Positions 14,112-49,430 of a stretch of DNA of 64,000 nt are shown here, one piece after another. Numbering within the stretch: the first letter of the stretch is position 1; every line of letters begins with the position of its first letter. A model generated the notes under the pieces. It was given only the letters and a program-made list of their open reading frames with translations. It made no database searches and was not told where the DNA came from. This DNA is from Candidatus Omnitrophota bacterium (GTDB lineage Bacteria > Omnitrophota > Gorgyraeia > JABMRN01 > RBG-13-46-9). A program made the position numbers and the translations under genes. The stretch spans positions 3,270 to 67,269 of the forward strand of contig JABMQJ010000007.1 in the NCBI GenBank assembly GCA_013203315.1, read 5' to 3'.

Positions 14112-15665
14112 ATGGCCAACATTAGTTTTATTACACTTTATGACAAGGGATGCATGGGCACAAGATATCTATCCTCCTTGCTAAAAGCGGAGGGGCACGC
14201 AACATCTATAGTATACTTAGGAAGGCATGAGGGAAAAATCAAAAAGGGTAACGATGCCTTAAATTCCGACGAGGATCTGTGGATAAGTGTTAATGAGTAC
14301 GGGAAAGACTTGGTTCGTAGCTATTCTGACCCAATCAGCGAAAACGATATAGATATTTTACTGGATCTCCTGGCTAAAATAAAACCTGATGCGCTGGGCT
14401 TTTCCCTGCGATCCATGTTTTTAAACACAGCCACACAACTAGTAAATCGGATTCGGGAAAAGTTTGATTTCCCTATTATTTTCGGCGGAATAGCCGCGAC
14501 ATGCGATCCCGAAAAATGTATTCGTGAGGCAGACATAGTCTGCTTAGGCGATGGCGAACAGGCCATGTTAGAGATAGCCCGACGGATAGACAAGAAAGCC
14601 CCCTTAAACGACGTAAATAATCTCTGGGTGCGTTCTAACGATAATATTTATAAAAATGGGTTATACCCGCTTGAACAAAATCTGGATAAATTCCCCTTTC
14701 CGGACTACGACTCTTTAAATAAATTCTCGATTCACAATGGCGCGCTTATTGAAAACGATCCTGCCATCGGCAACATGAGTAAATATACCTACGAAATCGT
14801 AACATCACGCGGGTGCCCTTTTTCATGCACCTACTGCTGTAATGACGTGCTTAAAAATACTTATGAGGGGCAGAAATACCTTCGTCGGAGATCCGTAGAA
14901 AATGTTATCGACGAATTGAAAATCGCAAAAGAAAAGCACGGCATAAAATCCGTCCTATTCAAGGATGAAGTCTTCACGTTTGATTTGAATTGGATTAAAA
15001 ATTTTTCTGAAGCTTACAAAAAGGAAATTGCCCTCCCCTTCTGGTGTTATACGTATCCGGCGTTTGCTGATAGTCAAATTCTTAATTTGCTAAAAGATTC
15101 CGGCATGTTTAATGTAACGATGGGCATTCAGTCCGGCAGCGAAAGCATCCTTTACAATACTTTTAATCGAAGGACCTCGATAGAGAAAATTATTTCTGCC
15201 GCGGATACCCTGATACGTTTAAAATTGCCTATAAGGCCCCGTTATGATATCATAACCAATAATCCGTTTGAAACCGAGAACGATCGCCAGGCTACCCTTG
15301 AATTATTGATGCGCCTTGATAAGCCCGTAGATTTTGGATTAACCAAACTTTCCTTTATACCGGGATCCAAGATCGTCCGGATGCGGGAGGAAAAACACAT
15401 AACCGGAGTAGTCGACGAAGATCTTTATAAGTTTTGGAATACTTTATATTTATTGAATCAATATAGTTTTTTCCCTAACCGTTTCATTAGGGCTTTGAGT
15501 AGAAGTAAGTTTTTCCGGGACAAACCGCAATTTTTGCAGTTGTTGCTTGTGCCTAAATTCGCAGAAACCAAATTTCAGGGTTTTTTGGATTCATTGAAGG
15601 GATGTATACCCGGAAATGCTATCTTATTTTTGAAGAAAATCCGTTATATTGTAAAAAGATACTAA
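14112..15665 (+). CDS. B12-binding domain radical SAM enzyme (class B rSAM)
   Basis: N-terminal Rossmann-like cobalamin-binding region, then TSRGCPFSCTYC (CxxxCxxC) radical-SAM cluster motif. 517 aa. Confidence 0.75.
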   Translation: MANISFITLYDKGCMGTRYLSSLLKAEGHATSIVYLGRHEGKIKKGNDALNSDEDLWISVNEYGKDLVRSYSDPISENDIDILLDLLAKIKPDALGFSLRSMFLNTATQLVNRIREKFDFPIIFGGIAATCDPEKCIREADIVCLGDGEQAMLEIARRIDKKAPLNDVNNLWVRSNDNIYKNGLYPLEQNLDKFPFPDYDSLNKFSIHNGALIENDPAIGNMSKYTYEIVTSRGCPFSCTYCCNDVLKNTYEGQKYLRRRSVENVIDELKIAKEKHGIKSVLFKDEVFTFDLNWIKNFSEAYKKEIALPFWCYTYPAFADSQILNLLKDSGMFNVTMGIQSGSESILYNTFNRRTSIEKIISAADTLIRLKLPIRPRYDIITNNPFETENDRQATLELLMRLDKPVDFGLTKLSFIPGSKIVRMREEKHITGVVDEDLYKFWNTLYLLNQYSFFPNRFIRALSRSKFFRDKPQFLQLLLVPKFAETKFQGFLDSLKGCIPGNAILFLKKIRYIVKRY

Positions 15666-15692
15666 TCGCAGTACAGAGAGAAGGGTTAAATA

Positions 15693-16421
15693 ATGCTTTG
15701 GCTAATGTTTGCGGCCTATAACGAAAGAGAGAATCTTGCCAACCTGCTGCCCGGGCTATCAAACTTCCTGGAAGGCAAGATTAAAGACTATAAAATATTA
15801 ATCGTCGATGACGGCAGTACCGACTCGACAAAAAATATCGCCGATTCTTTGGATAAGCCCCTCCCCATCGAAATAATTTCGCATGAAAAAAATAAGGGAG
15901 TCGGTGAAGTATTTAAAACCGGCTTCTCTGCGATAAGCCGTCTCGCCGGGCAAGATGATCTCGTAGTCGTCCTGGAGGCAGATGGAACCAGTGACTACAC
16001 GTTAATACCTGAATTGGTCAGGAAACTCGAAGGCGGCATGGATATAGTCATCGCTTCTCGCTATATAAAAGGTGGTGCCTATAGGAATTTTCCGCTAAAA
16101 AGGCATTTAATAAGCCATATCGGCAATGTTATTTTAAGCATGGCATTCAGGAATAAACGCATAAAAGACTACACTATATTTTTTAGAGGCTACCGGGTCG
16201 AGCTCCTGAAGAAGGCCCTGTCGCAGTATAAGGACGGGTTTATTACATCAAATACGTTTCTTGCCAATACGGAAGCGCTTATAAACCTTACGAAACTTAC
16301 CGATAAGATAGATGAGGTCCCGTTCGTATATTCCTATGAGGTAAAAATCGGTAAGAGTAAAATGCCTCTTCTAAAGACGCTTTTTGATTATATCAAATTC
16401 CTGCTTACTAAACGCGCTTGA
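15693..16421 (+). CDS. DPM1-like GT2 polyprenyl-phosphate monosaccharide synthase (no TM)
   Basis: LIVDDGSTDST..EADGTSD (DXD) GT-A core, about 240 aa, DPM1/Ppm1-like size and motifs. Confidence 0.7.
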   Translation: MLWLMFAAYNERENLANLLPGLSNFLEGKIKDYKILIVDDGSTDSTKNIADSLDKPLPIEIISHEKNKGVGEVFKTGFSAISRLAGQDDLVVVLEADGTSDYTLIPELVRKLEGGMDIVIASRYIKGGAYRNFPLKRHLISHIGNVILSMAFRNKRIKDYTIFFRGYRVELLKKALSQYKDGFITSNTFLANTEALINLTKLTDKIDEVPFVYSYEVKIGKSKMPLLKTLFDYIKFLLTKRA

Positions 16422-18167: not shown

Positions 18168-18169
18168 TA

Positions 18170-18679
18170 TTACACTCCTTTTTTGCGCACGTCACCTATG
18201 ACTTTAGCCGGCACCCCGGCTACGATAGAGTAATCCGGCACATCCTGCGTCACCACGGCACCCGCGCCTATCATGGCGCTTTTACCTATGGTAACCCCGC
18301 ACATGATCGTAGCAGAGCTGCCGATTGAACAGCCGCTCTTGACACAAATTGCGCTAACCTTCCAATCGGTTTCGGTTTTCAAGCGCCCTCCTACGGCAGA
18401 TCTCGGATAGCGGTCATTAATGAACATGGCGCCGTGGCCTACAAATACTTCGTCTTCAATTGTCACGCCTTCACAGATAAATGTATGCGAAGATATCTTA
18501 CAACGCGCGCCTACTTTGGCATTTTTTTGAATTTCTACGAAAGAACCTATTTTAGTTTCATCGCCTATGCTGCAACCATAGAGATTTACAAGTTCGGGGT
18601 GCGGTATTTTTACGTCTTTCCCCAGTCGTACATCTTTTTCTATCGGCATATTATGCTCCTCTCCTCCGGCGGTCACCAC
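18170..18679 (-). CDS. Hexapeptide-repeat (left-handed beta-helix) acetyltransferase (WbpD-like)
   Basis: Repeated [LIV]G.....[IV] hexapeptide units (IGSFVEI, VGARCKI, VFVGHGA, CSIGSSATI, VTIGKSAMIGAG). Confidence 0.7.
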   Translation of the reverse strand: MVTAGGEEHNMPIEKDVRLGKDVKIPHPELVNLYGCSIGDETKIGSFVEIQKNAKVGARCKISSHTFICEGVTIEDEVFVGHGAMFINDRYPRSAVGGRLKTETDWKVSAICVKSGCSIGSSATIMCGVTIGKSAMIGAGAVVTQDVPDYSIVAGVPAKVIGDVRKKGV

Positions 18680-20004
18680 AGTCCTATGCGTTCGGCGAAT
18701 CCTTTAACAAAACTTTTTGTTATGGCGGAATATTTAAATAAAAAATATGTGAAAATAAAATATCCGCTCACATATAGCAGGGAATATATTTTTTGTCCTC
18801 CCTTATTTACAAACCCGTAGATACCGTAAGAACCCAGAAGGATAATATAGCCGTCTATCGGCATCCTGTAACGCGAGAACCCCGGGAATAATAAGGTAAA
18901 CGACATAAAATATAAAATTACAATAAGTATGTTCCAAATTTCTTTATTCTCTTTAAACGCGAAAAAAGTGCCTAAAAAAGCGAAGGGTAACATAAAAATA
19001 TACTGAAAATTAATAACATTCCCTCCCAAGATTTCCCAATCAATGATATTCCAGAAAAATAAAAATCTTATGGCAAACATTTTAAGCGCAAATAAGGGTT
19101 GTGTTCTATAAATTTTTATCGCCTCGTGCATGAAAAAATTATTACGTTCGGCCTCATTCGACATAGTATCATAGTTAATCGACATCGGGCTGCCCGGAGG
19201 GAAAGTAAATATCATGCCGTCCGCGGGCTTGCAGAGCCCTTGGTACATATTGATCCCGCCGTTTGTCGAGACTAATACAAATTTTCCATGGGCCCTGTAG
19301 TTTCGGACCGTCCAGGGCACTATTAGGATTAAAAAACAGAGGGCGAGCGCTAAAGAAAAGGCCGCGATTTTCGTCCATGGTAACTTGTTTTTACGCATTT
19401 TTGGAAGTAAAATAAAAAGTACTATAAAAGGCAGGAAGACGGCTGCTGATCTTGTGAGAGTAGCAATGCCGCATAATATACCCAACAGACAAAACCATTT
19501 CACGCCCGGTTTCTTGGCGATAATAGCCAGATAGATTATGGAAACCAAAAGAAACGTAAAAAGTGTTTCGGTGTATAGCATTTTTGAGCAAATAATAAAC
19601 GTCATGTAAAGGGATGAAAAAATACCCGTGATTATCGCCGTGGGCTTGTTAAAAATTTTCTCTGCCGTTAGATAAAGGATGCATACCGTGATAGAAGATA
19701 TGATAACTTGGATAACCCGAACGGCAAAATAACTGTGGCCGAATATGGCGTAAATAAACGCCAGGAAGCCTGCGTAAAACGGCGGTCTGTACGAAGTTGC
19801 GGCACCATCGGAATCCACATAGGCCCTTTCCTCCAAAAGCCTCATAGCTAGATTATCATGCTCGATTTCGTCCGTTTCTATTCCGGTGGGGCTACCCGCC
19901 AAATACAGGACCCGGATCGAAAATGCCGCAGCAAAGATAAGCAGAACTATTAGTAAACCTTTGTACTTGTTTCCCATAATAATATTACGTTTTGTTGGCC
20001 GCAA
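18673..20004 (-). CDS. GT-C fold membrane glycosyltransferase, ArnT/PMT (GT39/GT83-like) family
   Basis: N-terminal TM helix then loop with IETDEIEHD acidic motif (the DE motif of PMT/ArnT enzymes). YRPPFY and about 11 TM helices over 443 aa. Confidence 0.6.
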   Translation of the reverse strand: MRPTKRNIIMGNKYKGLLIVLLIFAAAFSIRVLYLAGSPTGIETDEIEHDNLAMRLLEERAYVDSDGAATSYRPPFYAGFLAFIYAIFGHSYFAVRVIQVIISSITVCILYLTAEKIFNKPTAIITGIFSSLYMTFIICSKMLYTETLFTFLLVSIIYLAIIAKKPGVKWFCLLGILCGIATLTRSAAVFLPFIVLFILLPKMRKNKLPWTKIAAFSLALALCFLILIVPWTVRNYRAHGKFVLVSTNGGINMYQGLCKPADGMIFTFPPGSPMSINYDTMSNEAERNNFFMHEAIKIYRTQPLFALKMFAIRFLFFWNIIDWEILGGNVINFQYIFMLPFAFLGTFFAFKENKEIWNILIVILYFMSFTLLFPGFSRYRMPIDGYIILLGSYGIYGFVNKGGQKIYSLLYVSGYFIFTYFLFKYSAITKSFVKGFAERIGLW

Positions 20005-22151: not shown

Positions 22152-22153
22152 AA

Positions 22154-22717: not shown

Positions 22718-22718
22718 A

Positions 22719-23705: not shown

Positions 23706-24931
23706 CGCACCCCCTGTTTTTTCTTATTCAGAAAAGATTCGGTGACTTCTTTTATGTTTTTCGCTATGTAATCTACGTGCTCTGTGGTATAGAACTCATT
23801 CCACGGTAAAACCAGGACCTGCTCAAGAGCCTTCATCGTGCCGGGATATTCGGCAGTATCGTAAACAACTTCTTTTTCACCTTTCCTGCTTGAGCAATCG
23901 TATGGACAATGGCTCTTGCCGTAGGTTACCTTGTCTTTTAAAACTTTGCACATAAAGGCCGGTTTCTGTATATATCGCGGTACCGAAAAAATGTCTTTTT
24001 CCTTAAGTACCTTAGAGATTTCCGTTACACCTACGCCGAATAAATCGGTATCAACGATAAGGGCGTATTTCCAGAAAACATGCTCGCTATCTTTCGTAGA
24101 TTCCGGCAAGGTTATACCGGGCGTACCCCGAAGACGCTCTGTAAGCAATTTTGCTGTATCCTGTCGTCTTTTCACAACGCCTCTTACTTTCCTAAGCTGC
24201 GCCAAGGCTACTGCGCCCTGAAGATCGGTCATTCTATAGTTTAAAGCGAGGAAATAGTGATCCGGATTCGGGTCTCCGTATCCCCAGGCTTTATCGATGA
24301 ATAGCCTTATCCTTCGCTCGAGTGCGGCGTCTTTTGTAATGATTATACCGCCCTCGCCTGTTGTCATGTGCTTACCCTGTTGCAGGCTAAAACAGCCTAT
24401 GTCGCCTATAGTTCCAACGTTTTTGCCCTTGTAAGTGGCAAAATAGGCCTGACAGCAATCCTCTATTACAGGAATTTTATGTTCTCGCGCAAGATCCATT
24501 ATAGGATCCATTTCAGCGGGTTTTCCGAACAAATGCACAACTATTATGGCTTTGGTGCGTTTTGTAATCTTCGGTCTTATGGTATCAGCCGTAATGTTGA
24601 GTGTTACAGGATCCGTATCCGCAAAAATAGGTATCGCATTTTGATAAAGTATGGGTGTTATGCCTCCCATGTCCGTTATAGGGGTTGAGATGATTTCATC
24701 CCCCGGATCAGGGTTTACAGCAGCAATCGCTGTGTGGAGCGAAGATGTTCCGGAGGTCGTAGCATGAGCAAACCTTACACCGCATTCTTCGGCAAACTCC
24801 TTTACGAGTTTCTTAACCATAGTCCCCTTTGTCGCGTTTAGCGTACCGGATTCGATCACCTCTTTTAAAAGAGCTATTTCTTCTTTTCCTAAATCCCTTC
24901 CGGTTGAATTAGAATCGTTTGGCAGTTTCAT
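23702..24931 (-). CDS. DegT-family PLP sugar aminotransferase (WbpE-like)
   Basis: Fold-type I aminotransferase. The likely start is MKLPNDS at 24931 (ATGA overlap with the upstream gene) rather than the track start at 24970. Confidence 0.75.
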   Translation of the reverse strand: MKLPNDSNSTGRDLGKEEIALLKEVIESGTLNATKGTMVKKLVKEFAEECGVRFAHATTSGTSSLHTAIAAVNPDPGDEIISTPITDMGGITPILYQNAIPIFADTDPVTLNITADTIRPKITKRTKAIIVVHLFGKPAEMDPIMDLAREHKIPVIEDCCQAYFATYKGKNVGTIGDIGCFSLQQGKHMTTGEGGIIITKDAALERRIRLFIDKAWGYGDPNPDHYFLALNYRMTDLQGAVALAQLRKVRGVVKRRQDTAKLLTERLRGTPGITLPESTKDSEHVFWKYALIVDTDLFGVGVTEISKVLKEKDIFSVPRYIQKPAFMCKVLKDKVTYGKSHCPYDCSSRKGEKEVVYDTAEYPGTMKALEQVLVLPWNEFYTTEHVDYIAKNIKEVTESFLNKKKQGVR

Positions 24932-38638: not shown

Positions 38639-38639
38639 T

Positions 38640-40106
38640 TTATTTTCCTCTTGCGTAAAACTTTGTTTTATATCGATTAATTTTAATGTTCTTCTGAAAA
38701 TTAAACCCGGCCTTTTTGAAAGCTCTTATGGAAGGTATATTTTTTTCTCTTATATATGCGTTTATGCTGTTTATGTCCGGCCTCTCGGCAAAAAAAGTAT
38801 TTACGGCTATATTCAAAATATATGAAGAAAGATTCAAGCCGCGTGCGCTCTTTACCAGGCTAAAACTGATTGCGGCTTCATTTTTTGGTTTGTCAATATC
38901 AAATCTTATTTGACCATAAAATTGGTTTGAAACGGAAATTATAAAAAGTACGCAATCTTTATCTTTCATTCTTTTCTTCATCCATCCAAGATGATGGTCC
39001 CAGCTTATTATTTTAGGATCAAAGGAACCTTCCCTGACCCTTCTTTCGTTAAATAAGTTAAGTATATCTCGCGCATCTTGAATGCGGGCTTTCCGTAACG
39101 AAAGATTGTTTTCAAACCACTGCGATAAAATTGCCTTTACAGCCGTTTGGCTGCCGCTGCCGCCTATAAGAAGTTTGGCTATTTTCGATCTTTGTTTTCT
39201 TACTTTTACGCTTTTAAATCTTTCTATCGATCTTTTAACTCTTTTTTTAAGATTTCCATCATTGAACCGGCCTGCGTATTCCAGAAAACCGGCCTTTTCC
39301 CAACCCTTGGCGTTCTTAAGTTGATTTTTCGCGACACATACGCCTATTGTCGGAATACCAACACGCGCGAGCTCATAAAGAGTTTGCCCCGCAGCGGAAA
39401 TCGCTATGTCTGATCTTATCATTATTCTTTTCATCTTTTCTGAACTCGGATTATGGATAAATTTTGTTTTCGAATCTTTCAAACTATCTATTTTTTCTAT
39501 GCTCCGAAACCCTCCGCCTATGACCACAAGTTTCCTGAATTGTGGGTACTCATTTTTTAACAAATTAAGTATAAGCGGGGTCATTTGTCTTTTATCGTCT
39601 CCTCCAAAAGTAACCAATACGCGGTTTACAGCTTTCTTTATTTTTATATTCGGCATATTCCAAAATTCTCTTCGTATGAGGGTGTAGTTTGTTCCGAGAA
39701 GATATGAAATCTCTCTATCTTTGGCATAATTAAGCGTCGTAGCGTACACAGATCCATTAAGAACAACCCCCTTGTCATACTTTAGTCTATTATTGTCATC
39801 GACATAAACAGCAAGGTCAACATTGTTAGAAATTTCCTTATAGAATCTCTCATCACACATGTAGGAATCTACAATACAAATTGCAGATCCCCGAACGGTC
39901 TCAAGAAGCCTCTTTTTCTCTTTTAACCAATCAAAAATAAAGTATTTTCTTTTCCCGAGAATATTGCATACGCTTTTATCGCCGTTTATTATAAATACAG
40001 GGCTGATGCTGCGTTCCTCAAAGGCCTGAGAAAGAGAAACACACCTTGCTAAATGACCGAAGCCCACATTCTTACCACCCTCTGTTATTATGAAAACTTT
40101 TCTCAT
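38640..40106 (-). CDS. Fusion protein: PseG-like UDP-sugar hydrolase (N-terminal) plus GNAT N-acetyltransferase PseH-like (C-terminal)
   Basis: N-terminus KVFIITEGGKNVGFGHLARCVSL matches the PseG GFGH signature and MurG-like fold order. The C-terminal ~160 aa have GNAT-like motifs. Confidence 0.65.
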   Translation of the reverse strand: MRKVFIITEGGKNVGFGHLARCVSLSQAFEERSISPVFIINGDKSVCNILGKRKYFIFDWLKEKKRLLETVRGSAICIVDSYMCDERFYKEISNNVDLAVYVDDNNRLKYDKGVVLNGSVYATTLNYAKDREISYLLGTNYTLIRREFWNMPNIKIKKAVNRVLVTFGGDDKRQMTPLILNLLKNEYPQFRKLVVIGGGFRSIEKIDSLKDSKTKFIHNPSSEKMKRIMIRSDIAISAAGQTLYELARVGIPTIGVCVAKNQLKNAKGWEKAGFLEYAGRFNDGNLKKRVKRSIERFKSVKVRKQRSKIAKLLIGGSGSQTAVKAILSQWFENNLSLRKARIQDARDILNLFNERRVREGSFDPKIISWDHHLGWMKKRMKDKDCVLFIISVSNQFYGQIRFDIDKPKNEAAISFSLVKSARGLNLSSYILNIAVNTFFAERPDINSINAYIREKNIPSIRAFKKAGFNFQKNIKINRYKTKFYARGK

Positions 40107-40843
40107 ATTTTCTTTTGAATCACTTTATTGTTTAGCGATTTAAGCCACGGATTTTCGCGTAATGTCTTGACCACATCAAAAGCTGTAAATTTAGCCTTCT
40201 TTTTAAAAAGAAGGCTAAATATCGCATTGATGAATGAGTAATCCTCTTTGGTATCAAGCACAAGCCTTATATCCGGGCCGTAAAGCTCCCGCGGTGCTTT
40301 AACTTGAGTAATCTTAAAAGCCTTTGGCCTTTTGTAAATATAAGGAGTTACATGCTCTTTTTCACTTGGTTTCTTGGCATTTTTATACGCCTTTTCAAGG
40401 ACGCTAAAGTTAAAAACTTCGGTATCAAATCCGCGGGGATAGCTTCTCGTGAGTGTGTTTGAAGTATAATCGGACTTTGACTTTATGTGCCTGGTGATTA
40501 TTGAATCTACTATCTCCGGATCTATGCATGGGCAATCGCTACAAATTCTCACTATCACATCCAGTTCGTTTTCCTTTGCGCAAAAATAATACCGGGACAA
40601 AACATTCTCTTCGCTCCCCCTAAAAAGGGTAACCTTTTCTTTTTTTGCGACATTAGCGATTTCATCACTATCCTTTTTATTGACTGTCGCGACTATAATT
40701 TCGTCTAATCGCTTTGATTTTTTCAGTCTTCTTGTGACATGTTCGAGCACTGTAATGCCGCTTCCGGCAGGGACCTCTTTCAAGACCTTACCCGGAAGTC
40801 TGGTCGAAGAAAATCTCGCCTGTACTATAGCGCCTACCTTCAC
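40103..40843 (-). CDS. Acylneuraminate cytidylyltransferase-family enzyme (PseF/SpsF-like CMP-sugar synthetase)
   Basis: N-terminal AIVQARFSSTRLPGK nucleotidyltransferase motif. 246 aa. Confidence 0.6.
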   Translation of the reverse strand: MKVGAIVQARFSSTRLPGKVLKEVPAGSGITVLEHVTRRLKKSKRLDEIIVATVNKKDSDEIANVAKKEKVTLFRGSEENVLSRYYFCAKENELDVIVRICSDCPCIDPEIVDSIITRHIKSKSDYTSNTLTRSYPRGFDTEVFNFSVLEKAYKNAKKPSEKEHVTPYIYKRPKAFKITQVKAPRELYGPDIRLVLDTKEDYSFINAIFSLLFKKKAKFTAFDVVKTLRENPWLKSLNNKVIQKKI

Positions 40844-40902
40844 CTTGGCGTTCTCCTTTAAAGCCTAACGTTTATAAGGCATTTCTTTGTCAATTACATG
40901 AA

Positions 40903-42108
40903 TTAACGACGGCTACTCTTTTCATACGCTGCCTTAACAACGTTGTCATCGTTTATTCTTGTGAGGTTACCGGACTTATCCTTTAGGAGGCTTCCTCTTG
41001 AATCGCAAACAAAAAGTTTTTTGTTCGTAAAACGGTCGCAAATCTTTGTAAATTCCTCTATAGTCATGTCCATCTCTCCCAGTATCTCCTCAAGGGAATA
41101 CCCCAGATAGGTCCAGGGGAATTTACCGTCAAGCCTTTTTACCGCATCAAGCCCTTCTTCCCTCGTAAGACGCCCCCGACGTATGTTCAAAGATGCGTAG
41201 TCCGTTACTCGTCCAAAACCAAATTTCAAAAATTTGAAATAGTCGTGTATGCGCATCTGGCAATTATCGAGATTCTCGTAGTTTACGAGGTTGCCTTCTA
41301 CATTTTTGGGATATGTCTCAAGGCCGTGCGCCTGTGCTACCAGCGCGTTGCTATAGCTGTCCCATGGCGTATAATGACCCAAGAAAAGCCCTGTAACGCC
41401 CACGCGCTTTAGTTCTTCATCTTTGGGATAGGTAAACTGGATGAGATGCTTTGCTTCAATTCCATCTTTCCCTATTAAATCGGACACTTTCAAGCCCAAT
41501 AAGCCGCCGAATTTCTCAAGCCACGGCCGGTCCAAAACGTTATTTTCGGCTGCCGCTGCCGGGCCGCCATACTCGTTTTGGGAGTTCTCTCCCCATATGA
41601 TCAATGGGACATTGAACTGCACTGCTATCCTAACGGGAATCGTAAATATGGTCAAATGTTCCGGCCACGAAATATCGCCTACTTCGGACATGGCGAAGCG
41701 GTTGATCTTTCTCCTGACCACACGATTTGTGGTAACTTCGATATAGTCGACGCCTAGTTTTTTTAAATTCTCGATATTGCGCCGCCCTATGTCAGATAGC
41801 TTACAGGTTGTAGCCGTAACACATAAAGGATTCATTCCTAATTCCAACATTTTTAGGGTCTGAAAGTGGCTATCCTTACCTCCGCTAACCGGAATAATGC
41901 AATCATAGTTACTGTTATTTTTTGAGCGGTAGCGATCGAGTATTTTTACCAACTCCTCTTTCCGCTTGTTCCAGTCTATGCTTTTTCTCTCTGTGAATGA
42001 GCGGCATGCGTTACAAACCCCTTCTTCATCAATATAAAGATCCGGTCTCGTTTCAGGCATAACACAGCGTTTGCAATATTTTATGCTTTTCTCCGTCATA
42101 CAGTACAA
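40903..42108 (-). CDS. N-acetyl sugar amidotransferase (PseA/WbpG family, PP-loop ATP pyrophosphatase)
   Basis: N-terminal Cys4 (CKRCV..CNAC), then PP-loop IIPVSGGKDSHFQ. Confidence 0.7.
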   Translation of the reverse strand: MYCMTEKSIKYCKRCVMPETRPDLYIDEEGVCNACRSFTERKSIDWNKRKEELVKILDRYRSKNNSNYDCIIPVSGGKDSHFQTLKMLELGMNPLCVTATTCKLSDIGRRNIENLKKLGVDYIEVTTNRVVRRKINRFAMSEVGDISWPEHLTIFTIPVRIAVQFNVPLIIWGENSQNEYGGPAAAAENNVLDRPWLEKFGGLLGLKVSDLIGKDGIEAKHLIQFTYPKDEELKRVGVTGLFLGHYTPWDSYSNALVAQAHGLETYPKNVEGNLVNYENLDNCQMRIHDYFKFLKFGFGRVTDYASLNIRRGRLTREEGLDAVKRLDGKFPWTYLGYSLEEILGEMDMTIEEFTKICDRFTNKKLFVCDSRGSLLKDKSGNLTRINDDNVVKAAYEKSSRR

Positions 42109-43118
42109 CTCTCCTTTTCCGTTCGTGTTTCTTTTTTGTTAATTTGTAAACTTTTTTTAATTAATGCTTCCATCTCTTTTCCTGTTAACCATTCGGGATT
42201 ATTGTTGCTCGCGTATCGAAAACCGTCCTTTAGCTTCTTGCCGCCCTTAAAGTTATCATCTGACCACCAGTGAAATTCCGGTTCAATTACAAAGAAATCG
42301 CTAAATTCTTTCGCGTGTCTTGCCTCATCTTCGGTAACCAGAACCTCGTCTATTTTTTCGCCGGGCCTTATGCCTATCTCTTTAATCCTGCAACCCTTAA
42401 CCATTAATTTCGCCAAATCTACGACCTTCATGCTAGGAATTTTAGGCACAAATATCTCTCCTCCCTGCATGAGATCTACGGACTTTACTACAAATTCAAC
42501 GCCTTTTTCCAGAGTGATCCAGAATCTTGTCATGCGCTTGTCAGTAACCGTAACGGTGCCTTTTTTTTCCTGCTCTTTAAACTTATGCACGACGCTCCCA
42601 CGGCTTCCTATTACGTTCCCATATCGGGCGCAACTAAATCTTGTACCGCTTTTGCCGGAATAGGAATTGCCCTGGATGAATATTTTCTCCGCGCACAATT
42701 TCGTCGCCCCGTACAGATTAATTGGGTTTACGGCTTTGTCGGTACTGATCGCCATTACCTTTTTGACGCCGGCATTTATTGCAGTATCTATTATGTTTTG
42801 CGCGCCTAAAATATTTGTCTTTACGGCTTCGAAGGGATTGTACTCACAGGCTGGAACCTGCTTTAGCGCGGCGGCATGAACTACCAGGTCCACACCCTGC
42901 ATGGCCCTTTCGAGCCTCTCTTTATCGCGAACATCGCCTATAAAAAATCTTACGGGCCCTTTATTCCCGTAACGGTGTTCCATTTCGGACTGCTTGAGCT
43001 CATCCCGGCTATACACCCTTATAACCTTAGGCTTATACTTTTTTAACATGATCTCGATAAATTTCTTTCCGAATGAACCGGTTCCGCCCGTAACAAGAAT
43101 TGTCTCGTTATTTAACAT
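42096..43118 (-). CDS. pseB: UDP-N-acetylglucosamine 4,6-dehydratase (inverting), PseB/FlaA1-like
   Basis: ILVTGGTGSFGKKFIE N-terminus, short-chain dehydratase with YGATKLCAEK catalytic motif. About 340 aa, as for PseB. Confidence 0.8.
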   Translation of the reverse strand: MLNNETILVTGGTGSFGKKFIEIMLKKYKPKVIRVYSRDELKQSEMEHRYGNKGPVRFFIGDVRDKERLERAMQGVDLVVHAAALKQVPACEYNPFEAVKTNILGAQNIIDTAINAGVKKVMAISTDKAVNPINLYGATKLCAEKIFIQGNSYSGKSGTRFSCARYGNVIGSRGSVVHKFKEQEKKGTVTVTDKRMTRFWITLEKGVEFVVKSVDLMQGGEIFVPKIPSMKVVDLAKLMVKGCRIKEIGIRPGEKIDEVLVTEDEARHAKEFSDFFVIEPEFHWWSDDNFKGGKKLKDGFRYASNNNPEWLTGKEMEALIKKSLQINKKETRTEKESCTV

Positions 43119-43524: not shown

Positions 43525-43619
43525 CAGAAAAGTAGTATCAGCGGGGTGAGGGGCAGTAATCAGATAGCGTCTCTTTTCCGTAATCGCTTAACTTGCCGTT
43601 CATACATTTTTATCTTCGG

Positions 43620-44714
43620 CTAAACTTTTTTAATCGTGGCTACGATATAATCTTTTTCTTCTTTTGTCAATTCGGGGTAAACGGGAATTGCGAAACTTTC
43701 TTTGGATAGTTTCTCCGATTCCGGAAAATCACCCGGTTTGTGTCCCAAGGATTTGAAGCATTCCTGCAAGTGTAACGGCAGAGGATAATACGTTCGCGAT
43801 TCTATTCCGCTATCAAGGAGATGCTTAACGATTTTTCCCGCATCTTTGCTTCTTAGAACGTACTGATGATAGGAATGTCGATAGCCCTCGGGAACGTGGG
43901 GCGTTGTAATAGAACATCCTGCAAGATTCTTGTTAAAGAATGCGGCATTCTCGATCCTTTGATCTATCCATTTATCCAAATAAGTAAGTTTTATGTTCAG
44001 AACGGCTGCCTGAAGATTGTCGAGACGGCTATTGTATCCTACAATTTTGTGATAATAACTTTTTTCCGAGCCGTGGTTTCTAAGTAGCTTGACTTTCTTG
44101 TACAGAGCCTCCTCGTTGGTTACCACCATACCGCCGTCACCGAAGCAACCCAGGTTTTTGCCCGGATAGAAGCTTATAGCTCCTGCTACTCCTAAACTAC
44201 CGGCCTTTTTCCCTTTATACGTAGAGCCTATTGCCTGCGCGCAGTCTTCGAGCACCGGGAGCTTGTGTTTCTTCGCAATGCTTGAAATAGGGTCCATGTC
44301 CGCGCATAAACCATACAAGTGGACCGGCACTATGGCCTTGGTCTTCTCGGTTATCTTTGCTTCTACGAGGCCCGGATCTATATTGTAAGTTTTAGGGTCT
44401 ATATCGACAAAAACCGGTTTCCCTCCCACCAGGGAAATAGCTTCCACTGTAGCTACAAACGTAAAAGGCGTAGTAATTACTTCGTCACCCTTGCAAATGC
44501 CCATAGCATTTAAAGCCAATATCAGTGCGTCTGTGCCGGAATTTACACCTATCGCATATTGTGTGTTACAATATTCGGAAATATTTTTTTCGATCAGGGA
44601 AACCTCTTCCCCTAACACAAATGACTGATTGTCGCATATCTTTGATATACGTGCTTCTATTTCTTTTTTTAGCCCCTTGTACTGTTTCTTTAAGTCAAGT
44701 ATAGGTATTTTCAT
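43620..44714 (-). CDS. pseC: DegT-family aminotransferase, PseC-like (UDP-4-keto-6-deoxy-hexosamine 4-aminotransferase)
   Basis: Fold-type I PLP enzyme immediately upstream of pseB in the Pse block. Confidence 0.7.
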
Positions 44715-45643: not shown

Positions 45644-45645
45644 TT

Positions 45646-46557
45646 TTATTGATCCCCCTTTAACATTGTTCTTAATCCATGTTCAAAACCAATGGGCTTG
45701 AAACTCAATTCACCCTGGGCAGAGCCGATGTCCGCCAGTTTATCCTGGTCTATGCTTAAAATTTGCTGACTATGAGTTCGCAGAAAACGGTTAATTTTCC
45801 CTAAAACCAGGCACAGCCTTTTAACCGGGGCTATGGGTAAATGAACTATCATCCTTTTTTTACCCAATACCCTTAGGATAGTCTGTACAATCTCGTTCAT
45901 GGTCAATGCAGAAGGTCCGGCTATGTCATAAATCTTTCCGGTAGTTCCTTCAAGCTCTATACATTTTTTTATGGCATAGATTAAATCGCCTACATATACG
46001 GGTTGCCGCTTGTAATACCCGTCTCCGAATATGGGCACTAAAGGTGAATGTCCTATAAACTTTATGAGAGAAGATATGTGTTTGTCGTCGGACTGGCCGT
46101 ATACAACGGTTGACCTTAAGATCGTATAATTTAAAGAGCTTTCCTTTAGTTTTTTTTCGGCGGCCAATTTGGTACCGCCATACAAAGAATGCGGTACCAG
46201 TTCTGCATCAATTGAGCTTACATAAACAAACTTTTCTATATTCGCGCCCAACGATACATCTATCATGTTTGACATGCCGCGAACATTTACGTCTTCGAAT
46301 TCAGCCTTATTCTTAGAATTTATTACAGAGGCCAGGTGTATGCAAAAATTTGCATTGCCGATTGCATTTTCCAGTGAGTCTCTATCCTGCAGATCGCCCA
46401 GAACTGTGGTTATGTTCTTTGACTTCCACAAATCCTTATGTCTGTCACGGCGAACAAGGCATCGAACGTGAGAGCCCTCTTTTGCGAGCTTGTCTACCAA
46501 ATGCCTCCCGATAAAACCGCCGGCTCCGGTTACAAAGTAGATATTATTTTTTTTCAT
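45646..46557 (-). CDS. NAD(P)-dependent epimerase/dehydratase-family SDR (nucleotide-sugar reductase/epimerase, specificity unknown)
   Basis: [15 protein letters not shown] Rossmann motif and [10 protein letters not shown] catalytic YxxxK. Confidence 0.6.
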
Positions 46558-48064
46558 GCCGCCTATGCTTATAAAGCATCTCCTGCAATACCCGGTCTAC
46601 TTTCGTTTCCTGTTTTCCGGTAAATAGGTTAACCAAAAGTCTTACGAACCTCCAGGGTCTAATAGCAAAGGAAATAGCATAAAACATAATCAATCCGCGT
46701 ATCTTAAAGCCTAAAAGCTCACTTTTGCTCAAGCTGGAATTCCAGGAATCTGTTTTATTCAATGACAACGAAGAAAATAGCGCAAAATAAAATTCATTGG
46801 TTAATTCAAAACGTTTTGGATCTTTTTCCTTGAGCTCATCAAATACGGAAGTACCCGGAATCGGGATAAAAGTCGAGATGGCAATCTCGTGTACCCCTAT
46901 AAGGGCCATCTTTCTTATTAGTTTAAATGTCTTTTTAATATCCTCGACGGTTTCGCCCGGGAAACCGATTAGAAAGAAAAGGCAGACGGTCATTTTGGAA
47001 CTTATGGCGGCCTTTATCGAATTTTCTAATTGACGAAGGTCAATCGTTTTACCCATTTTATCTAATACATCTTTACTGCCGCTCTCCGGCGCAAATGTGA
47101 TATCCCTGCAGCCGGATTTCACAAGCAGCTCGGTAACCTCCTTGTCGATAACAACGGTCCTAGTACCCACCGGCAGCTGCCAGCGTATTCCAAGATTACG
47201 GCGTAATATTTCGTTCGCAAAACGCACTATCCAGTCCTTGCGTATAATGGCTGTCAGATCCATAAGGTGAAAATCATTGGTTTTATATTTATTCATATAA
47301 AATTCGATTTCGTCGACAACTTTTTCAACGCTCCTCGGCACCCAGACGGAACCCCACATGTTCCGGGCCGTGCAAAAACGGCATCTATAGGGGCATCCGC
47401 GGGTTGCGATTATGGGCATCGTGCGCCCTTTGCTCGCACCCATAAAAAGTCCTCTTTCGATATACTTTTCCACATCTATCAAATCCCACGCAGGGGGCGG
47501 GATAGAATCTAAATTTCTTATGCGCGGACGCGGCTTATTTGCAATAGGTTTTTGCCCGTCCATATAAGCAATGCCGCTTATGTCATTTAAACGATCGCCT
47601 TTCTTTATTGAATCGGTTAATTCCTCAAATGTAATTTCGCCCTCGCCCAAAACACAGAAATCCACGGGGGAACTCGACAAAACTGCTTCCCACATACCGG
47701 TAGCATGTTCGCCTCCCATGACAAGGGGTATGTCCGGAAAACGCTTCTTTATTGCTTTTACCAATTCGCGCACATACGGCCAAACGGGTGTAAACATGCA
47801 GGTAATACCGATTACGTCCGATTCCGCCGGAATATTATTGACTATTTCATCTGTAGCTAATCCCTGCACGACGATATCTCTGTTAAGCGAGTGACCTGAC
47901 CGTTTGTCCATGGCCTGCCCCACAGCATCTATAACGTGCACATTATGGCCCTTCTCGCGCATATATGAAGCTATGTAACATAGTCCCAGCGGTGGATGGA
48001 AAATAGATGAGTAATTTAATTTTAACTCGAAATGCGGGGGATTAATCAACGTTATGTTATTCAT
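46544..48064 (-). CDS. B12-binding domain radical SAM enzyme
   Basis: PPLGLCYIASYMREKGHNVHVIDA N-terminus and ATRGCPYRCRFC motif. 506 aa. Confidence 0.75.
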   Translation of the reverse strand: MNNITLINPPHFELKLNYSSIFHPPLGLCYIASYMREKGHNVHVIDAVGQAMDKRSGHSLNRDIVVQGLATDEIVNNIPAESDVIGITCMFTPVWPYVRELVKAIKKRFPDIPLVMGGEHATGMWEAVLSSSPVDFCVLGEGEITFEELTDSIKKGDRLNDISGIAYMDGQKPIANKPRPRIRNLDSIPPPAWDLIDVEKYIERGLFMGASKGRTMPIIATRGCPYRCRFCTARNMWGSVWVPRSVEKVVDEIEFYMNKYKTNDFHLMDLTAIIRKDWIVRFANEILRRNLGIRWQLPVGTRTVVIDKEVTELLVKSGCRDITFAPESGSKDVLDKMGKTIDLRQLENSIKAAISSKMTVCLFFLIGFPGETVEDIKKTFKLIRKMALIGVHEIAISTFIPIPGTSVFDELKEKDPKRFELTNEFYFALFSSLSLNKTDSWNSSLSKSELLGFKIRGLIMFYAISFAIRPWRFVRLLVNLFTGKQETKVDRVLQEMLYKHRRHEKK

Positions 48065-48104
48065 CGTCTCTTTCTTTGATAAAAAAATACAAGCCGCGCT
48101 TCTT

Positions 48105-49430
48105 TTAAAAAGGTAAAAATTTCCTCCATAGCTGTACCAGATGTTTAAATTGTTTTCTTATGTATGAAAATCTGAAATAATAGTTAAGAAAAGCCCATTC
48201 CTTAAGGTTCTTCAGGGTCTCTTTCGACATATTTTTGTTGCGTACGACCGGGGTAAAAGAATTAAACTTCTCCCAATCGGGCTCTGTTATAAGTTTCTTG
48301 ATCCGTCTATAAAATTCTGTTCCCGGAAAAGGCGTGAGAATGTGAAATTGCGCCAAAAAAGTATTTAATTTCTTTGCGTAACTAACGGTTTCTTTTATAG
48401 TCTGGACCGTATCGTCCGGAAGCCCCAGGAGATAAAACGCTATTATTTTAATGCCTTTTTTTTCGCAGTATCTGATGATCCTTTCCTGGCGTTTTATGTC
48501 CACGGCTTTTCTGCTGGCTTTGTCCAGGAGATCCTGCCTGGCCGACTCGATTCCGAGATTAATGGCTTTTAAGCCCGCCTTGTACATGCTATCAATCAAG
48601 CTTTCGTCAAGCAAATCGGTTCTCGTCTCGCAGGCCCATTCAAGATTAAATTTATTTTTGATCATGCCTTCAGCAATTTGCCTGGATCGCTCTTTATCCA
48701 ACGTGAATAGCGGATCCCGGAATAAAAGGCCTTTTATTTTAAATCGATCTTTCAAATATTTTATTTCTTCAATTACGTTCTCCGGGCTTCTCGCCCTCCA
48801 GTTTTTCTGGTACGTGAGATATGGGCAATAATTACAGGCAAATGCGCAACCCCTGCTTGATTGCATGGAAAGGAACGGCTTCTTTCTTATCGAAGGGGAA
48901 TAATAGTAGTTACTAATATCAAAAAAATCCCATTTCGGAAAAGGTAACTTATCCAGCTCCTGCAAAGAAGGGCTATCTACCACACCTTTTGGAATAAAGC
49001 CTTTTGAAATTTCCATCGCCGCATGTTCGGGTTCGCCTTTTATGATAAAATCCCCGAATTTAAGGTATTCATCGGTTAAGTACCCCGCAAATGGCCCTAT
49101 GAAACCTATTTTAGCCTCCGGGTATTTCTTTTTTATTTCCGAGGCCCTGCGCAATTCTGACTTATAATCTACTATTGAAGAAGCCAGAATAAATAAATCC
49201 CCCTGTGGTATTTTATCGCCGTGCATAACTTCAATTTCATGCCCACCTTTCGAAAATATGCTTGCCATATACCCCAGGCTTAATATCGGAATGTTTCGTA
49301 AAACTTTTTTCTGCCGCATAATCCATCTGGCAAAAAAAGATTCTCCGACCTGGGTGTTAATTCCGTAACCCCCCATTTGGTCCTTATTTACAGCGCTATC
49401 CGAGGTTCGTTCAACTAATACTATTTTCAT
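48105..49430 (-). CDS. B12-binding domain radical SAM enzyme
   Basis: SSRGCAFACNYC motif. N-terminal Rossmann-like domain. Confidence 0.7.
   Translation of the reverse strand: MKIVLVERTSDSAVNKDQMGGYGINTQVGESFFARWIMRQKKVLRNIPILSLGYMASIFSKGGHEIEVMHGDKIPQGDLFILASSIVDYKSELRRASEIKKKYPEAKIGFIGPFAGYLTDEYLKFGDFIIKGEPEHAAMEISKGFIPKGVVDSPSLQELDKLPFPKWDFFDISNYYYSPSIRKKPFLSMQSSRGCAFACNYCPYLTYQKNWRARSPENVIEEIKYLKDRFKIKGLLFRDPLFTLDKERSRQIAEGMIKNKFNLEWACETRTDLLDESLIDSMYKAGLKAINLGIESARQDLLDKASRKAVDIKRQERIIRYCEKKGIKIIAFYLLGLPDDTVQTIKETVSYAKKLNTFLAQFHILTPFPGTEFYRRIKKLITEPDWEKFNSFTPVVRNKNMSKETLKNLKEWAFLNYYFRFSYIRKQFKHLVQLWRKFLPF

Follow-up and report, generated by a model that had tools for sequence, protein, structure and literature searches.

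What are five radical S-adenosylmethionine (SAM) enzymes, most of them with a domain of the B12-binding type, doing in a single operon for a surface glycan? The question is raised by a 64,000-nucleotide stretch of DNA (hereafter the window; positions 3,270 to 67,269 of contig JABMQJ010000007.1), which comes from the metagenome-assembled genome (MAG) of an Omnitrophota bacterium and has a GC content of 41%. We call the five genes R1 to R5 in coordinate order and a sixth one, found among them, R6. The reading that we put forward, with a probability of about one half, is that of modular cassettes in which the radical SAM enzymes would tailor sugars, probably linked to polyprenyl phosphate, before membrane glycosyltransferases of the GT-C type transfer them.

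Radical SAM genes in a surface-glycan operon

An earlier note on this DNA, made from the sequence alone, had singled out five open reading frames (ORFs) by an RGCxxxCxxC motif. All five are present exactly as described, R1 on the plus strand and R2 to R5 on the minus strand; R6, a sixth radical SAM gene of the locus, had been overlooked:

14112..15665, plus strand: R1, class-B-type radical SAM protein (Radical_SAM 67.5 bits, B12-binding 35.6 bits; motif SRGCPFSCTYC)
25651..27045, minus strand: R2, class-B radical SAM protein (Radical_SAM 98.5 bits, B12-binding 86.4 bits; motif SRGCPARCTYC)
27042..28076, minus strand: R6, SPASM-type radical SAM protein without a B12 domain (Radical_SAM 49 bits, SPASM 30 bits; below NCBIfam cut-offs)
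36178..37608, minus strand: R3, class-B radical SAM protein (Radical_SAM 95.5 bits, B12-binding 74.1 bits; motif VRGCPFQCIYC)
46544..48064, minus strand: R4, class-B radical SAM protein (Radical_SAM 78.8 bits, B12-binding 75.9 bits; motif TRGCPYRCRFC)
48105..49430, minus strand: R5, radical SAM protein with a degenerate Rossmann N-terminal domain (Pfam Radical_SAM only; motif SRGCAFACNYC)

Each of R1 to R5 contains one CxxxCxxC motif, preceded by RG, and matches Pfam Radical_SAM (PF04055, cut-off 29.5 bits) at 67-98 bits (E 2e-18 to 6e-28), far above chance. With R6, which also has a single motif, six proteins fall into the radical SAM superfamily at 49-98 bits. The further claim, that all five carry a cobalamin-binding N-terminal domain, stands in part. 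The Pfam B12-binding domain (PF02310, cut-off 32.1 bits) was found in four of them, placed as a Rossmann domain ahead of the radical SAM core as in class B enzymes, clearly in R2, R3 and R4 and marginally in R1. In R5 no PF02310 match was found at E ≤ 1e-3, and nearly all members of its family carry PF04055 only in precomputed annotation. By this domain, R1 to R4 are candidates for cobalamin dependence.

The five genes are mutually distant. Pairwise phmmer scores range from 65 to 204 bits, against approximately 1,000-1,190 bits for self-comparison; R1 is the outlier, with 65-95 bits and 21-24% identity to the other four. These values led us to reject recent paralogy, and the description of the genes as five paralogous copies makes them out closer than they are: R2, R3 and R5, which could be traced in other genomes, represent separate, old and widely distributed families with different partners, widespread in genomes of Omnitrophota, the Candidate Phyla Radiation (CPR) and DPANN. 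Decay was likewise rejected, since all five genes are intact and the orthologue families of R2, R3 and R5 are highly conserved.

The genes lie in a surface-glycan operon of about 57 kb (approximately 783 to 58577), which runs almost entirely on the minus strand and has only three gaps of more than 60 bp between large ORFs. Pfam and NCBIfam annotation of all 55 large ORFs upholds the glycan context proposed earlier: glycosyltransferases of the GT2, GT4 and GT-C types occur together with a Wzx flippase, DegT proteins, short-chain dehydrogenases/reductases (SDRs), the pseudaminic-acid (Pse) pathway and rml genes. The operon is lipopolysaccharide (LPS)/O-antigen-like and belongs to an uncultured organism. 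Nucleotide-sugar enzymes comprise RmlA, RmlB and RmlD, two NDP-sugar dehydrogenases, three DegT proteins, many SDRs and the Pse pathway. Glycosyltransferases number three of the GT4 type and six of the GT2 type (five of them small), besides about six multi-helix membrane proteins of the GT-C type. For all GT2s except that at 28073-28900, the top NCBIfam matches include ArnC, PgfS, AglJ, Dol-P-hexose transferase or PpgS, always below cut-off; the closest score to any polyprenyl-phosphate sugar synthase model is that of the GT2 at 3103-4050 against ArnC (277 bits, cut-off 529). What marks the locus is its many pairings of a GT2 resembling polyprenyl-phosphate sugar synthases with a GT-C protein.

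None of R1 to R5 could be assigned to a curated family. HpnJ, BchE, AprD4, PhpK, HpnR, TsrM, MgmA, BzaD and the ladderane-lipid radical SAM family were all tried, and every cut-off was missed. The HpnJ model (TIGR03471, cut-off 577.6 bits) is the top match of R2 (251 bits) and R5 (179) and gives R3 186, R4 110 and R1 71; BchE (TIGR02026, cut-off 481) is the top match of R3 (225.5) and R4 (180) and gives R2 220, R5 134 and R1 44. R1 matches the ladderane-lipid model best (110 bits, cut-off 360). Scores against the AprD4 model (NF033070, cut-off 500) are 132 for R5, 105 for R3, 98 for R2, 70.5 for R4 and 53 for R1. No hopanoid- or bacteriochlorophyll-biosynthesis genes occur among the 55 annotated ORFs. 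The proteins do not fall into a clade of known non-glycan function, an outcome that the earlier note had listed as part of a refutation of its proposal, and their orthologues again lie among glycan genes.

Solved structures give a similar picture. In sequence searches of the Protein Data Bank (PDB), R5 has AprD4 (6fd2) as its top match (110.8 bits, E 7e-31). R2 matches 9ccb best (99 bits) and AprD4 next (85 bits), R3 matches AprD4 and 9ccb about equally (9ccb second, with 85.5 bits), R4 and R1 match AprD4 weakly, and R6 returned no match. Fold searches name 9ccb as MgmA, the methyl-coenzyme M reductase glutamine methylase. An AlphaFold2 model of R5 built from a 29-sequence alignment is of high confidence (predicted local distance difference test, pLDDT, 91.8; predicted template-modelling score, pTM, 0.91), with a Rossmann-like N-terminal half of alternating beta strands and alpha helices. 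Foldseek ranks AprD4 6fd2 first over the whole chain (E 7.5e-29; template-modelling (TM) scores 0.83/0.80; 469 aligned columns), ahead of query-normalised TM scores of 0.61-0.67 for cobalamin-bound TsrM, MgmA, CysS, TokK and OxsB. The R2 model (pLDDT 90.4) also places AprD4 first (TM 0.78/0.80), followed by MgmA (0.65/0.72) and TsrM (0.70). The cobalamin-binding fold, the lack of which would also have spoken against the earlier proposal, is present in the R2 and R5 models, although fold does not by itself show binding; as a test of binding the comparison is uninformative for R2, the model of which resembles cobalamin-bound enzymes about as closely as AprD4.

The R5 and R2 families align in hhalign with a probability of 100% over 406 columns and are homologous over their full length, including the N-terminal domain, so that this domain of R5 is a diverged homologue of the B12-binding domain. 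The R5 family carries a (nearly) invariant insertion, NKDxMGGYG, after the first beta strand (residues 15-23 of R5), at a position that we take to be roughly that of the cobalamin loop in classical B12-binding domains; it may fill or replace the cofactor pocket. A 2026 review, which counted 83,589 sequences, describes the largest sequence group of B12 radical SAM enzymes as unexplored. This group contains the non-methylating BchE and HpnJ, which are indistinguishable from methylases at the sequence level; AprD4 clusters with B12 radical SAM enzymes yet does not bind cobalamin, its domain being only remotely Rossmann-like, and no diagnostic sequence motif parts binders from non-binders in this group (PMC12931638).

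Conserved gene partners

Two neighbours of R5 are needed for what follows:

45646..46557, minus strand: SDR*, 303 residues, SDR of the NmrA/3beta-HSD type (Pfam Epimerase, 3Beta_HSD and NAD_binding_10; HpnA 83 bits, below cut-off)
49411..50835, minus strand: GT-C-like protein of the LA_3751/LA_3752 putative glycosyltransferase family, immediately upstream of R5 (NCBIfam NF047440 76 bits, cut-off 200; about 11 transmembrane segments)

The R5 family (46-89% identical, about 435 residues) is found in Omnitrophota, Parcubacteria, Aenigmarchaeota, Iainarchaeota and Chloroflexi. With Aenigmarchaeota (L094) and Parcubacteria (L093) proteins, R5 shares 51-52% identity, about as much as with those of other Omnitrophota. 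A metagenome scan added 80 R5 loci; 75 were usable in all, three of them long contigs (L092-L094), and 67 had a downstream gene. In 28 of the 67, this gene lies on the same strand and encodes an SDR that matches SDR* best; among the closer relatives this holds in 26 of 41, spanning Omnitrophota, Parcubacteria and Aenigmarchaeota. Among the more distant ones a DegT gene directly follows R5 in 15 of 26 (L139, L145, L147, L152, L155, L156, L162, L163, L166, L168-L172 and L174), a subclade of about 36-40% identity drawn largely from soil metagenomes. Both types of partner act on carbonyl sugars. Because reductase and aminotransferase alternate in the same downstream position, the R5 product probably bears a carbonyl group, and DegT in the place of the SDR suggests that the end product there would be an amino-deoxy rather than a deoxy sugar. 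AprD4-type diol dehydration yields a carbonyl product, and the neighbours of R5 thus fit a reaction of that type.

AprD4 itself is a radical SAM diol dehydratase with an NADPH-dependent reductase partner, AprD3 (PMC5461906). A reductase in the corresponding position is the same-strand SDR of the 26 closer relatives; in the window, where the order is GT-C (49411), R5, R4, SDR*, a further SDR and DegT, it lies one gene further on. R5 and SDR* are most likely an AprD4/AprD3-type deoxygenation pair, and R5 is probably independent of cobalamin and a candidate dehydratase more than a methylase.

The long contigs show R5 in compact surroundings: R5, SDR and GT2 in Omnitrophica (L092); GT2, R5, SDR, a B12 radical SAM gene and PMT_2 in Parcubacteria (L093); and R5, SDR, a Phosphodiest/Sulfatase-type gene and GT2 followed by a pair of PMT_2 genes, of which one has the opposite orientation, in Aenigmarchaeota (L094). 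The SDR of each of the three matches SDR* best in the window, and no nucleotide-sugar genes were found in compact cassettes such as that of L093. A Transglut_core protein is encoded immediately upstream of R5 in the Omnitrophica contig (L092 6795-7997), and a transglutaminase-core and TPR protein lies between RmlA and RmlB in the window (54970-56025). Beside the Aenigmarchaeota cassette is a carbamoyltransferase with precomputed intein and LAGLIDADG matches (L094 5229-7943), which may contain an intein.

In about a fifth of the R5 loci a second class-B-like radical SAM gene is situated within three genes of R5. The best representative of R4 is 49% identical, and more distant R4-like genes (33-38%) adjoin R5, SDR* or GT2 genes resembling dolichol-phosphate mannose synthase (DPMS) in L060, L105, L109 and L117. 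By this adjacency, R4 appears to accompany the R5 module. Five giant proteins of 1,497-2,331 residues (P0384, P0434, P0459, P0495 and P0504) each show two to six separate regions of similarity to R4, so that one chain carries several class-B radical SAM modules; four to six modules were counted in single proteins of 1,500-2,300 residues. They may relate to the very long Omnitrophota proteins of a 2026 preprint.

R2 lies among GT2 genes:

18673..20004, minus strand: PMT_2/ArnT-like GT-C protein (Pfam PMT_2 69 bits, PMT 38 bits; 8 transmembrane segments)
24928..25641, minus strand: small soluble GT2, 237 residues, directly downstream of R2 (Pfam GT2 112 bits; PgfS, ArnC and PpgS below cut-off)
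28073..28900, minus strand: GT2, 275 residues, with two C-terminal hydrophobic helices, partner of R6 (Pfam Glyco_trans_2_3 and GT2)
28901..29632, minus strand: DPMS/AglJ-like GT2, 243 residues, conserved partner of R2 (NCBIfam PgfS, AglJ and Dol-P-hexose transferase, below cut-off)

A scan with one genome per species returned 579 relatives of R2, the best 80 of which all come from MAGs or single-amplified genomes of uncultured lineages, mostly from anoxic habitats. The obligately anaerobic, cobalamin-using host envisaged earlier is plausible on this ground, that is, from the MAG and its relatives; the window itself contains no cobalamin genes, and an Rfam scan of it for cobalamin or SAM riboswitches gave no match. 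R2 orthologues, 45-76% identical, occur in Omnitrophota, Pacearchaeota, Woesearchaeota and Patescibacteria, and form a large family in which identity along the entire protein is 50-76%; identity to the Pacearchaeota and Woesearchaeota proteins (L007-L010) is 57-58%, about as high as to other Omnitrophota. In ten loci with an R2 relative 45-58% identical, an orthologue of the GT2 at 28901-29632 (33-67% identical) lies within two genes of R2 in seven, in different phyla. The closest solved relatives of this GT2 are the DPMS of Pyrococcus furiosus (81 bits), GtrB and ArnC. The order GT2, R2, PMT_2 GT-C is found in Omnitrophica CG11 (L005/L006), together with two further B12 radical SAM genes within 21 kb, and in L011 and L014 a neighbour of the R2 relative matches the window PMT_2 GT-C best. 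A PDB sequence search with that GT-C (18673-20004) gave no match.

In the complete Omnitrophota genome CP070780 (L089), genes to either side of the R2 region are syntenic with those of the window (flanking orthologues 62-81% identical), yet the block of R2, R6 and GT2 is missing and accordingly behaves as a cassette; an orthologue of the GT2 at 24928-25641 (68% identical) is encoded there. Within the block, the start of R6 overlaps the upstream GT2 (28073-28900) by 4 nt. A 679-residue GT2-radical SAM fusion of Pacearchaeota (L007 18568-20607) has the same order, its C-terminal half matching R6 (33% identity, E 4e-37) and its N-terminal half the GT2 (E 1e-8). GT2-SPASM adjacency recurs in L015, L041, L054 and L084.

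R3 is surrounded by genes for nonulosonic acids:

32867..34711, minus strand: Capsule_synth/Glyphos_transf protein of BFO_1060 type, 614 residues, putative nonulosonic-acid transferase (Pfam Epimerase_2, Capsule_synth and Glyphos_transf)
34683..36185, minus strand: Wzx-type flippase (Pfam Polysacc_synt_3 and Polysacc_synt; 12 transmembrane segments)
37622..43118, minus strand: Pse block, consisting of the next five genes
37622-38638, minus strand: PseI (NCBIfam 468 bits, cut-off 340)
38640-40106, minus strand: PseG-GNAT fusion with a PseH-like GNAT (PseG 165 bits, cut-off 154; Pfam GNAT)
40103-40843, minus strand: CMP-sugar synthetase, a cytidylyltransferase (Pfam CTP_transf_3)
40903-42108, minus strand: WbuX-type amidotransferase (WbuX 350 bits, cut-off 203)
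42096-43118, minus strand: PseB (503 bits, cut-off 408)
43620..44714, minus strand: PseC-like DegT aminotransferase (Pfam DegT 410 bits; PseC 249 bits, cut-off 424)

PseB, PseG and PseI thus reach the cut-offs of their equivalog models, and the PseC-like DegT does not. A 119-residue winged-helix ORF (HTH_24/MarR-like; 43128-43487, minus strand) inside a 501-bp gap of the Pse block, one of the three longer gaps mentioned above, may be a locus-internal regulator.

R3 itself sits between PseI on one side and the Wzx and putative nonulosonic-acid transferase genes on the other. Omnitrophota supply most of its orthologues (52-72% identical). The order NeuB, R3, (Wzx) and a BFO_1060-type protein of about 620 residues recurs in CP070780 and in a second Omnitrophota MAG (L090); NeuB directly adjoins R3 in both and lies close by in L176. 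Gene order of the block is conserved down to 42-52% identity, and the 42%-identical relative still lies in a block with the 620-residue protein, a SPASM radical SAM protein, a methyltransferase, a cytidylyltransferase and NeuB. The 620-residue type, encoded at most three genes away from the R3 relative in five of six other loci (and six genes away, at the locus edge, in the sixth, L175), is the most constant partner of R3. The window protein scores 78 bits against the NCBIfam BFO_1060 family (cut-off 200), a family that has since been proposed as the transferase of pseudaminic or legionaminic acid. In Tannerella forsythia, BFO_1060 lies at the edge of a nonulosonic-acid locus (PMC5378307). Because the NeuB and BFO_1060-type neighbours are conserved, R3 is assigned, by its gene context, to the nonulosonic-acid (pseudaminic-acid) branch.

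R1 forms a two-gene plus-strand unit with one further gene:

15693..16421, plus strand: small soluble GT2, 242 residues, directly downstream of R1 (Pfam Glycos_transf_2 82 bits)

This GT2 resembles polyprenyl-phosphate sugar synthases; in NCBIfam it matches ArnC, AglJ, Dol-P-hexose transferase and PpgS best, without reaching a cut-off. The two are the only large plus-strand ORFs of the window outside larger minus-strand ORFs. A gap of 560 bp separates them from the divergent minus-strand genes upstream (unit and gap, 13552-16421), and the 3' end of the GT2 overlaps a convergent GT2 (16408-17142) by 14 nt. The unit looks like an inverted or inserted two-gene cassette; a promoter and terminator scan around it gave nothing above shuffled controls. 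Among the loci examined, R1 and R4 have no close orthologues, only relatives 27-38% identical, and no conserved partners beyond membership in glycan clusters with several radical SAM genes could be defined from these. Taken together, our comparisons show domain content, family distinctness and gene neighbourhoods conserved across phyla and domains.

The rest of the operon includes other proteins of the GT-C type and, at its 3' end, a module resembling the Arn pathway:

783-2333: GT-C-like membrane protein without any Pfam match
3103..13551, minus strand: Arn-like module (by Pfam, NCBIfam and transmembrane-segment counts), which includes the next six genes
3103-4050, minus strand: ArnC/GtrB-like GT2 with C-terminal helices (ArnC PRK10714, matched over its full length)
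4047-5102, minus strand: SDR
5124-5954, minus strand: polysaccharide deacetylase
7020-8144, minus strand: DegT
10231-11556, minus strand: large GT-C-like membrane protein with a weak PMT match
11563-13551, minus strand: large GT-C-like membrane protein matching only the PTPS_related membrane-protein family
31567..32856, minus strand: GT87-like candidate GT-C (about 9 transmembrane segments; no Pfam match in the protein itself)

The Arn-like module further holds a methyltransferase and two GT4 genes. The GT87 label of the last protein comes from homologues in L005 and L089 (37-62% identical) with a weak precomputed PF09594 match. At 21027-24970 lies a WbpB/WbpE/WbpD/WbpI-like set (GFO oxidoreductase, DegT, hexapeptide acetyltransferase and 2-epimerase), which, with the NDP-sugar dehydrogenase at 51781-53106, is as found in the synthesis of UDP-2,3-diacetamido-2,3-dideoxy-mannuronic acid; it is syntenic and 73-81% identical in CP070780 (L089 17475-21446). 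A second GFO and hexapeptide pair occupies 17139-18679. Upstream of the operon (58598-63440), an LptD-like protein of 722 residues (LptD_N and LptC-like matches) is encoded together with two GGDEF diguanylate cyclases, one with a GAF domain, which suggests an LPS-type envelope and possible control by cyclic di-GMP.

Proposed chemistry and competing explanations

From these sequences and neighbourhoods we infer every substrate and reaction that follows, notably a lipid-linked rather than a nucleotide-linked sugar. At the cytoplasmic face, a small DPMS/ArnC-like GT2 would load a common sugar onto polyprenyl phosphate. The radical SAM enzyme would then abstract a hydrogen of the sugar via the 5'-deoxyadenosyl radical and tailor it, and a GT-C protein of the PMT_2, ArnT or GT87-like kind would move the product to glycan, lipid A or protein at the outer face. 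In the R5 module, radical dehydration of a vicinal diol would give a keto-deoxy sugar, which SDR* would reduce with NAD(P)H and which, in the distant subclade, DegT would transaminate instead. R2 would work with the DPMS-like GT2 at 28901-29632 and a GT-C; the lack of a reductase partner makes a redox-neutral reaction probable, either a methylcobalamin-dependent C-methylation or an HpnJ-like rearrangement. The target of R3 is probably the nonulosonic acid or its N-acyl group, modified at about the time of transfer. R4 would go with the R5 module, R1 with the GT2 at 15693-16421 and R6 with that at 28073-28900. Remodelling of lipid-linked sugars has precedents in HpnI/HpnK/HpnJ and Cds (PMC13459092), and the same operon offers one of its own in the ArnC/ArnD-like module. 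The earlier note had entertained radical modification of lipid-linked intermediates as one option; that option is the one that gene neighbourhoods favour.

Several observations weigh against this proposal. The NCBIfam scores of R1 to R5 all lie far below cut-offs, and the family functions are predicted. GT2 genes are abundant in any glycan locus, so that chance adjacency is expected; our adjacency counts are raw, and many metagenome contigs are short, which limits the counts of GT2 and GT-C. Within the window, three genes lie between the GT2 at 28901 and R2, and R4 separates R5 from SDR*. The assignment of R5 as a dehydratase rests mainly on its SDR and DegT neighbours: R5 is closer to R2 (181-184 bits) than to AprD4 (111 bits), and the R2 model also matches AprD4 best, so that likeness to AprD4 is partly a property of the whole group. 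The roles of R1 and R4 are guesses, given the lack of close orthologues among the loci examined.

Neighbourhoods also cannot part a polyprenyl-phosphate-linked substrate from a nucleotide sugar, and the latter is the basis of the best-surviving competitor. Here the proteins would be cobalamin-dependent C-methyltransferases of the GenK, GenD1 or Fom3 kind acting on cytoplasmic nucleotide sugars, and ordinary glycosyltransferases would incorporate the C-methyl or C-branched products. The B12-binding domain in four of the five proteins, the wealth of nucleotide-sugar enzymes in the operon and the methylase MgmA as top solved relative of R2 by sequence all agree with this, as does the finding that every characterised B12 radical SAM group includes C-methyltransferases (PMC12931638). 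That argument is blunted by BchE and HpnJ, non-methylating members of the same sequence group. Moreover, R5 lacks a recognisable B12 domain, and its SDR and DegT partners are more in keeping with a carbonyl product than with methylation; R2 and R5 are most tightly associated with DPMS-like GT2 and GT-C proteins rather than with nucleotidyltransferases, and L093 has no nucleotide-sugar genes at all. We therefore consider C-methylation of nucleotide sugars unlikely as an account of the locus. The C-methyl and C-branched sugars that the earlier note predicted are possible products of R1 to R4, as one of several chemistries, whereas R5 is more likely a dehydratase.

The membrane itself could be the target, with the polyprenyl carrier or membrane lipids being, for example, methylated, cyclised or cross-linked, and the position in the operon reflecting no more than shared membrane biology. 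The top NCBIfam match of R1, a ladderane "lipid biosynthesis B12-binding/radical SAM protein", points this way, although its 110 bits stay far below the cut-off of 360. Many lipid-modifying radical SAM enzymes are known (PMC13459092), a Pacearchaeota R2 orthologue lies between PAP2 and UbiA prenyltransferase genes, and the C-termini of R1 to R5 are strongly basic (net charge +4 to +11 over the last 45 residues). The conserved partners are instead GT2, SDR, DegT, NeuB and the nonulosonic-acid transferase, lipid-synthesis genes are absent from the annotated window, and we regard lipid modification as improbable. About as improbable is C-methylation of the Mmp10/MgmA type, or maturation like that of ribosomally synthesised and post-translationally modified peptides (RiPPs), on a surface glycoprotein or S-layer protein glycosylated by the locus: MgmA, a protein glutamine C-methylase, is the R2 relative just mentioned, RiPP radical SAM models (ApyD, rSAM_ocin_1) score 93-183 bits and PMT_2-type GT-C proteins include protein O-mannosyltransferases, but the RiPP scores are far below cut-offs, the conserved partners modify sugars rather than peptides, and neither small ORFs resembling precursor peptides nor leader peptidases or transporters came to light in the window. 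We thus retain tailoring of polyprenyl-phosphate-linked sugars by cassettes as the preferred reading.

Occurrence and relation to known systems

The five-gene array is not unique. Class-B-like radical SAM genes were counted in 46 loci around R2 relatives, each 15 kb or longer: 16 have at least three and four have at least five; the Omnitrophota locus L090 likewise holds five within 21 kb, interleaved with PMT_2, GT2, NeuB and Wzx. Glycan loci with several radical SAM genes are a recurring feature of uncultured anaerobes and not peculiar to this genome. The statement that no described O-antigen, capsule or S-layer pathway has this feature holds in the literature searched, where we found class-B radical SAM enzymes described neither for loci of O-antigen, capsule, S-layer or pseudaminic acid nor for the Omnitrophota, CPR and DPANN lineages. 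The Omnitrophota preprint mentions radical SAM only as a Pfam domain within giant proteins, and the words polyprenyl, undecaprenyl and dolichol do not occur in a recent review of radical SAM enzymes that modify lipids (PMC13459092).

Orthologues that are 50-58% identical between bacteria and archaea point to exchange of surface-decoration cassettes across domains. More broadly, and tentatively, the self-contained cassettes (from one to three radical SAM enzymes, in some cases joined by an SDR or DegT, alongside a DPMS-like GT2 and a GT-C) might constitute a widespread, undescribed branch of glycan synthesis that makes deoxy, amino-deoxy, C-methyl or even carbocyclic sugars on a lipid carrier and installs them outside the membrane, exchanged across domains among ultra-small, host-dependent anaerobes (Omnitrophota, CPR and DPANN) and diversifying their surfaces; we rate this as less than an even chance. 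Such organisms are thought to live attached to other cells, so that their surfaces matter, and if the proposal is true, their surface glycans carry sugars made by radical chemistry and polyprenyl-phosphate sugars are radical SAM substrates, a use for which we know of no described pathway. B12-type radical SAM enzymes are one of the largest blocks of enzymes without known function; to our knowledge, the few members known to act on sugars come from antibiotic or hopanoid pathways. The locus and its relatives give orphan families a context, with defined partners, compact cassettes of four to five genes and a predicted reaction for R5. The locus is nevertheless less exceptional than first thought, because such clusters are common in MAGs and the chemistry is predicted.

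Among known systems, AprD4/AprD3 performs the C3' deoxygenation of apramycin by a radical SAM 1,2-diol dehydratase and an NADPH-dependent reductase. R5 resembles AprD4 in its two-domain architecture, in having it as top solved relative by both sequence and fold, in lacking a recognisable B12-binding domain, and in its sugar pathway with an NAD(P)-dependent SDR, directly downstream in most of the closer relatives, which we liken to AprD3 by role and not by sequence. It differs in its AprD4-model score, far below cut-off, in an identity of only about 20%, in the NKDxMGGYG insertion, in its greater proximity to R2 and in its context, a surface-glycan, polyprenyl-phosphate sugar cassette rather than an aminoglycoside cluster.

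In the hopanoid side-chain pathway, the GT2 HpnI adds GlcNAc to the lipid, HpnK deacetylates it and the putative radical SAM enzyme HpnJ, which scores among the B12-type models, contracts the ring to a cyclitol ether; the HpnJ reaction has been assigned only genetically (PMC13459092). The likeness lies in HpnJ as top NCBIfam model of R2 (near full length) and R5, in the logic of a GT2 followed by a radical SAM enzyme on a lipid-linked sugar, and in the polysaccharide deacetylases of this operon and of L005. The HpnJ cut-off is not reached, shc, hpnH and hpnG are absent from the window, and the proposed carrier is polyprenyl phosphate, followed by a GT-C. Calditol synthase, Cds, is named with these enzymes as the other precedent for remodelling of a lipid-linked sugar.

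The framework would be that of ArnC/ArnD/ArnT and GtrA/GtrB/GtrC, where a GT2 makes a polyprenyl-phosphate sugar, which is tailored or flipped and then passed on by a GT-C at the outer face. Among the small GT2s of the window the best matches are to ArnC, GtrB and DPMS, below the curated cut-offs, about six GT-C-like proteins are encoded, and the operon has its own set of ArnC-like, deacetylase, DegT and GT-C genes. In the Arn and Gtr systems, by contrast, any tailoring of the lipid-linked sugar is the work of a hydrolase (ArnD); we know of no radical SAM enzyme in either.

GenK, GenD1 and Fom3, cobalamin-dependent C-methyltransferases for sugars or phosphonates, share superfamily and domain order with the window proteins, to which we liken them by description, and attack unactivated carbons in sugar-like molecules. 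Their genes are part of clusters for secondary metabolites, however, and the window proteins miss the methyltransferase models PhpK, Sden_1168, KedN5, TsrM and HpnR. MgmA (QCMT, PDB 9ccb) is similar to R2 and R3 in size and fold, ranking first and second among their respective sequence matches, but acts on a protein; the TIGR04014 score is 145 bits against a cut-off of 360, and a methanogenesis context is absent from the window. R1 to R5 thus stand outside every curated family and, by analogy, would work most like AprD4/AprD3 and HpnI/HpnJ/HpnK placed in a framework of the Arn/Gtr type.

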